The position numbers and the translations under genes were made by a program. A stretch of 64,000 nt of DNA, taken from assembly GCF_988243305.1 (NCBI RefSeq), contig NZ_OZ547136.1, one strand, 5' to 3'. Of this stretch, positions 43,938 to 44,138 are shown piece by piece. The notes under the pieces were generated by a model. That model worked only from the letters and a program-made list of their open reading frames with translations. It made no database searches and was not told the origin of the DNA. Numbering within the stretch: position 1 is the stretch's first letter; every line of letters begins with the position of its first letter.

Positions 43938-44138
43938 TCATTTCTCGTTATTTGTCATGCTGGCCGGGCGCAGATGCGTTGCATCTGTTGCCAGCCTTCT
44001 CCTGCAGGCTTCAATAACCCACGCTGAAAAGTTACCGGACCCTTTATGCTCAAGGGCGATGTTGATCTGTTCAATCATGTGATTGGGGAAACGGATATTG
44101 CGGGTTGTGGTTCTGCGGGTACGGTTTTTCGATGACAT
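43938..44138 (-). CDS. Arc/MetJ-type ribbon-helix-helix DNA-binding protein
   Basis: 66-aa minus-strand ORF with AAGGA RBS; MSSKNRTRRTTTRNIRFPNHMIEQINIALEHKGSGNFSAWVIEACRRRL (basic arm, beta strand, two helices). Confidence 0.5.
   Translation of the reverse strand: MSSKNRTRRTTTRNIRFPNHMIEQINIALEHKGSGNFSAWVIEACRRRLATDATHLRPASMTNNEK

Follow-up and report, generated by a model that had tools for sequence, protein, structure and literature searches.

A YlcI/YnfO-family gene in a lambdoid prophage

The window analyzed here, meaning the whole stretch of 64,000 nucleotides from contig NZ_OZ547136.1 (NCBI RefSeq assembly GCF_988243305.1), is part of an Escherichia coli chromosome that carries a lambdoid prophage. 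On its reverse strand, between the late lysis genes and the packaging genes, an open reading frame (ORF) at 43938..44138 is a real protein-coding gene whose 66-residue product is MSSKNRTRRTTTRNIRFPNHMIEQINIALEHKGSGNFSAWVIEACRRRLATDATHLRPASMTNNEK. A mechanical list of ORFs gave an 86-residue version of this frame, beginning at GTG 44198. The start was fixed at ATG 44138 because homology to the relatives sets in at exactly this point, because homologues open with MS[ST]KNRT, and because PGAP calls the identical 201-nt coding sequence (CDS; WP_000095744.1) in genomes that are 100% identical over 43300-44700. An original prediction, made by a model from the letters alone, had credited the gene with a good ribosome-binding site and a basic N-terminal arm. 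Both are present, as the Shine-Dalgarno sequence AAGGA 7 nt before the ATG and as five Arg/Lys within residues 1-13; over the full length, a manual count gave 12 K/R against 5 D/E.

RefSeq contains the identical protein as WP_000095744.1, "YlcI/YnfO family protein", and searches with it matched Pfam PF13132 (DUF3950; 71.8 bits against a cut-off of 25, E 4e-20), NCBIfam NF041551 ("YlcI/YnfO family protein"; 35.3 bits against a cut-off of 30) and phrog_949 ("unknown function"; E 2e-33). It also contains the YlcI/YnfO motif K/R-x-I-R-F-P ... N-F-S-A-W-V-x-E/D-A-C. By these matches the gene is a member of the already catalogued and named YlcI/YnfO (DUF3950) family, which the original prediction had overlooked and of which phage lambda itself has a member. 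It is a narrow family: a set of 1.84 billion representative proteins yielded 101 clusters of it at 50% identity. When a set of 5.8 billion proteins was searched with the family profile, the matches listed included close E. coli relatives only and no distant homologues. A locus search in viral contigs gave 80 near-identical loci (94-100% identity), a figure that speaks to prevalence and not to diversity. The surrounding 1.4 kb (43300-44700) is 100% identical to many E. coli chromosomes and was matched in 1487 of 5426 complete E. coli genomes (~27%), with at least 80% query coverage in 399; it shares 95-97% identity with Stx1a-converting phages and phage JLK-2012. Our literature search found no functional study of YlcI, YnfO or DUF3950, and two papers reporting ylcI mutations gave no information on function. 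The ynfO gene is counted among the uncharacterised y-ome genes of E. coli K-12 (PMC11551758).

A 33-codon ORF (43840-43941, reverse strand) begins in an ATGA overlap with the stop codon of the DUF3950 gene, and an analogous 17-codon ORF of lambda, also in an ATGA overlap, likewise opens with MN. Family searches gave no match for the 33-codon ORF, and these small ORFs may be chance occurrences.

Selection on the protein sequence

The ratio of non-synonymous to synonymous divergence (dN/dS) was computed over codons 1-49. Against the lambda copy, the window gene has 21 synonymous and 5 non-synonymous differences (dN/dS 0.03), and taking the lambda, DLP12, Qin and PhiR42_1 copies together the counts were 20-21 and 5, respectively, with dS 1.2-1.4, dN 0.045 and dN/dS 0.03-0.04. 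Comparisons involving the copy of Stx2a_WGPS8 gave dN/dS 0.06-0.08, so that the overall range among these diverged phage homologues was 0.03-0.08 at dS 0.7-1.4. Codons 1-49 are thus under strong purifying selection. Since synonymous sites are near saturation while the protein remains ~90% identical, selection acts on the amino acids, and not on a cis-acting DNA element or an antisense transcript alone.

In alignment A2 of the family, I15, R16, I25, F37, V41 and C45 are invariant and F17, A39, W40 and A44 near-invariant; of the two residues predicted to face DNA bases, R16 is invariant and N14 near-invariant. Homology ends near codon 50, and at least four non-homologous C-terminal tails occur in the family. 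The window protein is variable from about residue 51.

Position in phages and other elements

Eight phage contexts were inspected, and in each of them the gene reached first on going left from the packaging module is the DUF3950 gene, which diverges from that module. This position holds across two unrelated types of terminase small subunit (TerS), namely Nu1 in lambda, ev243, DLP12 (ylcI-nohD), Qin (ynfO-nohA) and PhiR42_1, and HNH + Terminase_2 in the window, Stx2a_WGPS8 and phage 1717. In linear lambda-like records the DUF3950 match lies ~200-390 bp from the right end. The downstream neighbours differ, being bor, DUF1398 genes (ybcV, ydfO, lambdap78), KilA-N genes or, in the window, a convergent gene for a lipoprotein with a TonB C-terminal domain (TonB_C). 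In ev243, Qin and PhiR42_1, bor or DUF1398 genes are co-directional with the DUF3950 gene.

Lambda (NC_001416.1) carries an intact 64-codon copy at complement(48109..48303), with its start 199 bp from the right end (L108 1810-2004, reverse strand; L009 200-394). The RefSeq lambda record has nothing annotated at this place, and the 64-codon product is identical to YlcI of K-12. YlcI (in DLP12) and YnfO (in Qin) belong to the same family as the window protein, with ~90% identity over residues 1-50, and their genes share with the window gene the orientation and the position beside the terminase small-subunit gene. They differ in what surrounds this common part: the C-terminal tail of the window protein, ATDATHLRPASMTNNEK, has no homology to those of the K-12 and lambda proteins, the gene is preceded by an HNH gene instead of the lambda-type cos region, and it is followed by the TonB_C lipoprotein gene instead of ybcW/ybcV or ydfO.

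Divergent members were also found outside phages. Some adjoin the integrase genes of integrative elements. Of those in chromosomal settings, one stands between copC and a gene for a TonB-dependent copper receptor (TIGR01778, 795 bits), upstream of the former and 9 bp downstream of the latter (L100/L101 2934-5225), a second stands beside yebY-copD-copC, with another TonB-dependent receptor gene 370 bp upstream of it (L098/L099 2544-5192), and one in Rouxiella follows cytochrome bd oxidase genes (L092 2498-5180). These settings mean that the module is not confined to packaging regions. The association of DUF3950 members with TonB and metals, to which the TonB_C neighbour in the window could be added, may be a coincidence. 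The weakest tblastn match (38% identity, E 1e-4) was in Pasteurella phage Pmp7 (L007 4853-5011, forward strand), where the other strand is annotated with a "transcriptional repressor" CDS. With 10.7 kb this element is satellite-sized, and it has its own HNH, TerS and large terminase subunit (TerL) genes.

Predicted fold and proposed function

The original prediction described the product as an Arc-like ribbon-helix-helix (RHH) protein. The predicted segments of the window protein are the basic arm (residues 1-13), a ribbon strand (~13-18, RNIRFP), helix A (19-31), a turn (G33-S38) and helix B (39-55), and the invariant and near-invariant residues of the alignment fit an alternating strand followed by two amphipathic helices. 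When the family profile was aligned to Arc with hhalign (P 0.008), N14-I-R-F-P18 fell on N11-L-R-W-P15 of Arc and G33 on G30; the Arc sequence used was checked against 1ARQ/1PAR. In addition, 9 of 17 family members weakly matched a HicB-like PHROG (best 8e-5) and 4 of 17 an "Arc-like repressor" PHROG (best 0.004). To our knowledge, RHH domains occur only as intertwined dimers, and for this reason a tandem construct (sequence, GS10 linker, sequence) was modelled with a matching 17-row alignment, the tandem arrangement being imposed by design. One of five models converged, with a core predicted local distance difference test score (pLDDT) of 70-79 and a predicted template-modelling score (pTM) of 0.53, and it contains four helices as two equivalent pairs. 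We scored this model as an intertwined dimer with a two-stranded antiparallel ribbon; dimerisation itself we infer. With the tandem model, Foldseek ranked single-chain Arc and TraY at the top. Taking the alignment and the modelling together, we consider it likely that DUF3950 adopts the RHH fold.

The most likely reading, with a probability of about 0.55, is that the protein is a small RHH dimer that binds DNA as a moron-type transcriptional regulator and is expressed independently of the late operon. The YlcI/YnfO protein would fold with the ribbon R13-N-I-R-F-P18 between the arm and helix A, and with the turn G33-x-x-x-x-S38 leading into helix B. The paired beta-strands would lie in the major groove with N14 and R16 facing the bases, so that ribbon and basic arms contact the DNA, and sequence-specific binding would repress or tune transcription. 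The gene itself would be a self-contained, leftward moron-type unit where the lysis and accessory region meets the packaging module, read against the late operon. It sits where lambda carries bor, and we count this accessory-gene position in favour of such a unit. The use of DUF3950 in satellites as an N-terminal module joined to other DNA-binding parts also speaks for this reading. In K-12, ylcI is reported to be transcribed, and ybcW-ylcI is listed as a convergent excludon that was detected in at least half of the RNA-seq samples analyzed (PMC12288877). The ydfO gene, directly downstream of ynfO, is strongly stress-induced (PMC4077768).

Several results weigh against this reading. Pfam searches with the 17 family members at E <= 10 returned DUF3950 only and no RHH family, no match was found among PDB sequences by phmmer or profile searches, and there was thus no significant match to a curated RHH family. 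The libraries queried contain no RHH assignment for DUF3950 and give its function as unknown, and methods based on sequence alone do not put the family in the RHH superfamily. Of the Arc-like RHH assignment, therefore, the register with Arc and the weak PHROG matches stand, and a curated Pfam family or PDB match does not. The AlphaFold model of the monomer was poor (pLDDT 64), with helices at 19-31 and 39-55, and gave no PDB match in Foldseek. Four of the five tandem models did not converge; in the one that did, residues 13-18 are extended, yet DSSP assigns no ribbon strand, and the Foldseek E-values of Arc and TraY were not significant. On the DNA side, the sole sigma-70-like candidate found upstream, inside the HNH CDS, is weak, and in a promoter scan that gave 4 sites in the region against 2.1 expected from shuffles it was not significant alone. 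HNH-type and lambda-type contexts share no related upstream DNA, homology beginning exactly at the ATG, and therefore no conserved autoregulatory operator is apparent that travels with the gene; nor did the compared flanks of DUF3950 genes contain a candidate operator.

The proposed regulator can be set beside known RHH proteins. Arc and Mnt of phage P22 belong to the MetJ/Arc superfamily, and neither Arc-family Pfam profiles nor PDB sequences matched the window protein significantly. The target of Arc and Mnt is the ant gene in immI; the DUF3950 gene, by contrast, adjoins the packaging module, and our operator search gave no candidate. TraY of the F plasmid relaxosome, AvtR, VirC2 and DndE are natural tandem double-RHH chains, whereas the window protein is a single repeat and would need to dimerise.

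Neighbouring genes and regulatory sequences

Lysozyme, Rz/Rz1, the TonB_C lipoprotein, HNH, TerS and TerL are all encoded on the forward strand (Table 1), and the DUF3950 gene is antisense to them. Its reverse orientation between late lysis and packaging genes, as claimed in the original prediction, is thereby confirmed, and so is its convergence with the TonB-like lipoprotein gene, from which it is separated by 131 nt. On its other side, the 41 bp between the divergent DUF3950 and HNH starts cannot accommodate a full promoter, and the DUF3950 promoter must therefore be sought within the HNH gene or further upstream; the transcription start is predicted near 44232. No terminator-like site was found by a terminator scan between these two convergent genes, and Rfam gave no match to the DUF3950 gene or its flanks.

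Table 1. Coordinates of the DUF3950 gene and of the features around it in the window.
Feature	Position	Strand	Remarks
Lysozyme gene	41498-42031	+	
Rz/Rz1 genes	42590-43141	+	
Perfect 8-1-8 palindrome AGAATAAGaCTTATTCT	43443..43459		Overlaps the -10 (TAGAAT) of the promoter-like site for the TonB_C gene
Lipoprotein gene with TonB C-terminal domain (TonB_C)	43480..43806	+	Lipobox LVMGC; convergent with the DUF3950 gene
YlcI/YnfO-family (DUF3950) CDS, 66 residues	43938..44138	-	Annotation WP_000095744.1, family hidden Markov models, helix models, dN/dS
Gap between divergent DUF3950 and HNH starts	44139..44179		41 bp
Shine-Dalgarno sequence AAGGA	44146..44150	-	7 nt upstream of ATG 44138; read from the sequence
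HNH endonuclease gene	44180..44545	+	Opens the packaging module; divergent from the DUF3950 gene
Sigma-70-like candidate promoter CTGACA-17-CAGAAT	44240..44268	-	9/12 matches; inside the HNH CDS
HNH-TerS intergenic region	44546..44835		Putative cos within
Terminase small subunit (TerS) gene	44836..45399	+	Terminase_2 type
TerL gene	45396-47057	+	

PHROGs places the TonB_C lipoprotein in the "Rz-like spanin" group phrog_1267, which looks like a mislabel. Homologues occur in phage 21, ev017, Perceval and a Klebsiella phage. The gene is plausibly a moron whose product would act on TonB-dependent receptors, e.g., in superinfection or colicin exclusion.

In the spacer between the HNH and TerS genes, a stretch of 42 nt (44591-44632) shares 86% identity with the corresponding spacer of prophage L102 (11965-12046), and an adjacent 36-nt block of the L102 spacer is 92% identical to the end of the satellite contig L002 (8-43). 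These matches are consistent with a shared cos site borne by the satellite. A perfect 12-nt inverted repeat (44733-44744 and 44754-44765) stands just upstream of terS.

The palindrome cited in the original prediction exists, with the arms AGAATAAG-A-CTTATTCT, and the promoter-like site that it overlaps reads ATGACC-16-TAGAAT. As a conserved operator it was rejected, the right arm being absent in phage 21. A search for operators shared by HNH-type and lambda-type flanks gave four exact 10-mers, one of them an 11-mer (ACACTGAATAC), with ~2 expected by chance by our own estimate, and these were likewise rejected. A Fur box in the window was also discarded: only 13/19 matches were seen near the gene (43445, 43773 and 43818), and the window has 18 such sites against 7 in mononucleotide shuffles, the region being AT-rich. 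A Fur-box-like sequence with 16/19 matches to GATAATGATAATCATTATC was seen cos-proximal and upstream of the DUF3950 ORF in lambda, DLP12, Qin and ev243 (L009 32-56, corresponding to ~48448-48472 of lambda; L010 5090-5114; L011 4589-4613; L008 33-57). Overlapping matches shifted by 3 or 6 nt occur at this site, and on the other strand it scores as promoter-like, pointing toward cos.

Alternative functions and satellite fusions

Instead of regulating transcription, the protein could have a packaging-linked role at cos or TerS, either as an accessory to cos recognition or termination, or as a lysogen factor that hinders the packaging of related superinfecting phages or satellites. We regard such a role, the main rival to the reading above, as possible but of low probability. 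It would fit the place of the gene as first leftward of the packaging module in all eight contexts, across both the Nu1 and the HNH + Terminase_2 types, and, in linear records of the lambda type, the distance of ~200 bp between its start and the right cos end. The same site is, however, also a classical moron hot-spot, occupied by bor in lambda, and adjacency to cos may reflect the accumulation of accessory genes. The right-end region of lambda is regarded as dispensable for growth, which counts against a packaging role, and the divergent members in non-phage contexts have no terminase nearby.

A packaging role is also suggested by satellites in which DUF3950 is fused to part of a terminase. 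Five clusters (P0191, P0241, P0242, P0243 and P0244; 123-142 residues, 48-86% identical to P0191) combine a DUF3950 N-domain with the start of a Terminase_2 TerS, namely the first ~50 residues, which form the DNA-binding helix-turn-helix (HTH); the remainder of TerS is missing. Both domains score above the Pfam cut-off in P0191 and P0244, while in P0243 the DUF3950 match has only 13.4 bits against a cut-off of 25, so that its N-domain is merely a divergent relative; it is P0191, P0241, P0242 and P0244 that we count for a packaging role. Residues 76-125 of P0191 are 62% identical to residues 2-51 of the window TerS, and residues 15-50 are 51% identical to the window DUF3950 protein. The fusion genes sit in satellites resembling phage-inducible chromosomal islands (PICIs), at 4714-5103 (forward strand) of L002, which has an integrase, an AlpA-like gene and a primase, and at 9001-9429 (forward strand) of L102, where the satellite is embedded in the late region of a prophage, beside TerS and HNH. 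An arrangement like that of L102 corresponds to helper-embedded satellites (bioRxiv 10.1101/2022.07.18.500453). No mention of DUF3950-TerS fusions was found in the satellite literature searched. By their domain composition, the fusions show DUF3950 used as a modular unit alongside a DNA-binding domain and give a hint of a functional tie of DUF3950 with TerS and cos; they are rare, with five clusters, and prove just that DUF3950 is a usable module.

Two precedents speak for a packaging role. Rpp is a PICI protein that mimics the DNA-binding domain of lambda TerS (Nu1) and redirects packaging (PMC6739421), and TerI (ORF65) of the Listeria prophage phi10403S is a protein of ~65 residues, encoded on the reverse strand in the lytic module and transcribed in lysogeny, that acts on packaging (bioRxiv 10.1101/2025.02.27.640495). 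By analogy, fusions of the P0191 type may be Rpp-like packaging redirectors for HK97-like helpers. The likeness to Rpp is limited to the satellite fusions, i.e., to a satellite-encoded copy of the helper TerS DNA-binding domain without the remaining TerS, and unlike the fusions Rpp consists of a winged HTH and a coiled coil with no DUF3950 or RHH part. In the window protein only the DUF3950 domain was found, and no DNA-binding domain of the TerS type. With TerI the window gene shares small size, reverse orientation and a place within the lytic module of a prophage, a parallel of logic only; TerI sits in the early module, and a relationship in sequence is not expected. A more specific form of the packaging role, to which we give a slightly lower probability, is that YlcI/YnfO proteins are cos-proximal RHH proteins that share in or police packaging, perhaps by binding near cos or partnering the DNA-binding domain of TerS. 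On that view the satellite fusions would represent, besides Rpp, another and independently evolved way of redirecting a helper terminase, here that of HK97-like HNH/Terminase_2 helpers.

Regulation of neighbouring cargo had been put forward in the original prediction, and in its strict form, acting through the palindrome, would make the protein a dedicated repressor of the TonB_C lipoprotein gene. RHH repressors commonly bind palindromes of this sort that overlap promoters, and the perfect 17-bp palindrome overlaps the -10 of the TonB_C promoter-like site; yet phage 21 and relatives carry a TonB_C gene whose product is 71% identical, with neither a DUF3950 ORF nor the right arm, and DUF3950 genes with almost identical predicted contact residues adjoin bor, DUF1398 and KilA-N genes instead. 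The idea is weakened accordingly, and we judge it improbable.

Slightly less probable again is an orphan or type II antitoxin-like RHH protein, the orphan antitoxin having also been suggested originally; its variable tail would neutralise a partner toxin, e.g., the DUF1398 proteins YdfO/YbcV. An RHH-type N-domain with a short, probably disordered tail in four non-homologous variants would suit an antitoxin, as would the HicB-like PHROG being the best weak match and the co-directional DUF1398 gene that follows after 42-57 bp in Qin and PhiR42_1. A read-through fusion, P0167 (177 residues), joins the C-terminal part of a DUF3950 protein to a DUF1398 (YdfO-like) protein, which agrees with ynfO and ydfO of Qin-type prophages forming a single transcription unit (L011 4757-5458). 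In the window, by contrast, no co-transcribed adjacent toxin gene was found: the 33-codon ORF, with no family match, is the only co-directional ORF downstream, the next real gene is convergent, and the PADLOC defence models gave no match to the gene or its flanks. In lambda and DLP12 a gene on the opposite strand separates the DUF3950/DUF1398 pair. According to work cited in PMC4077768, overexpression of YdfO is protective, not toxic.

That the antisense transcript is the functional entity, as an excludon against the late operon with the ORF incidental, would agree with the antisense placement of the gene and with the listing of ybcW-ylcI as a convergent excludon (PMC12288877), but is already disfavoured and very improbable given dN/dS 0.03-0.08 at near-saturated synonymous sites and 101 clusters at 50% identity with conserved residues.

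Implications

The gene itself is ordinary, and should the protein do no more than regulate the transcription of accessory genes locally, the finding would be routine. If it binds DNA as an RHH protein, the uncharacterised DUF3950 would receive both a fold and a likely activity. Of greater value than the gene that prompted the analysis are the DUF3950-TerS(N) fusions and the unannotated gene of lambda, whose reference annotation lacks an intact, strongly constrained gene of 64 codons ~200 bp from cos. The constant place of DUF3950 genes beside two different packaging modules and the TerS fusions provide a concrete hypothesis that would tie a small RHH protein to packaging or to satellite piracy, and if the cos-proximal packaging reading were true, it would give a function to this lambda gene.

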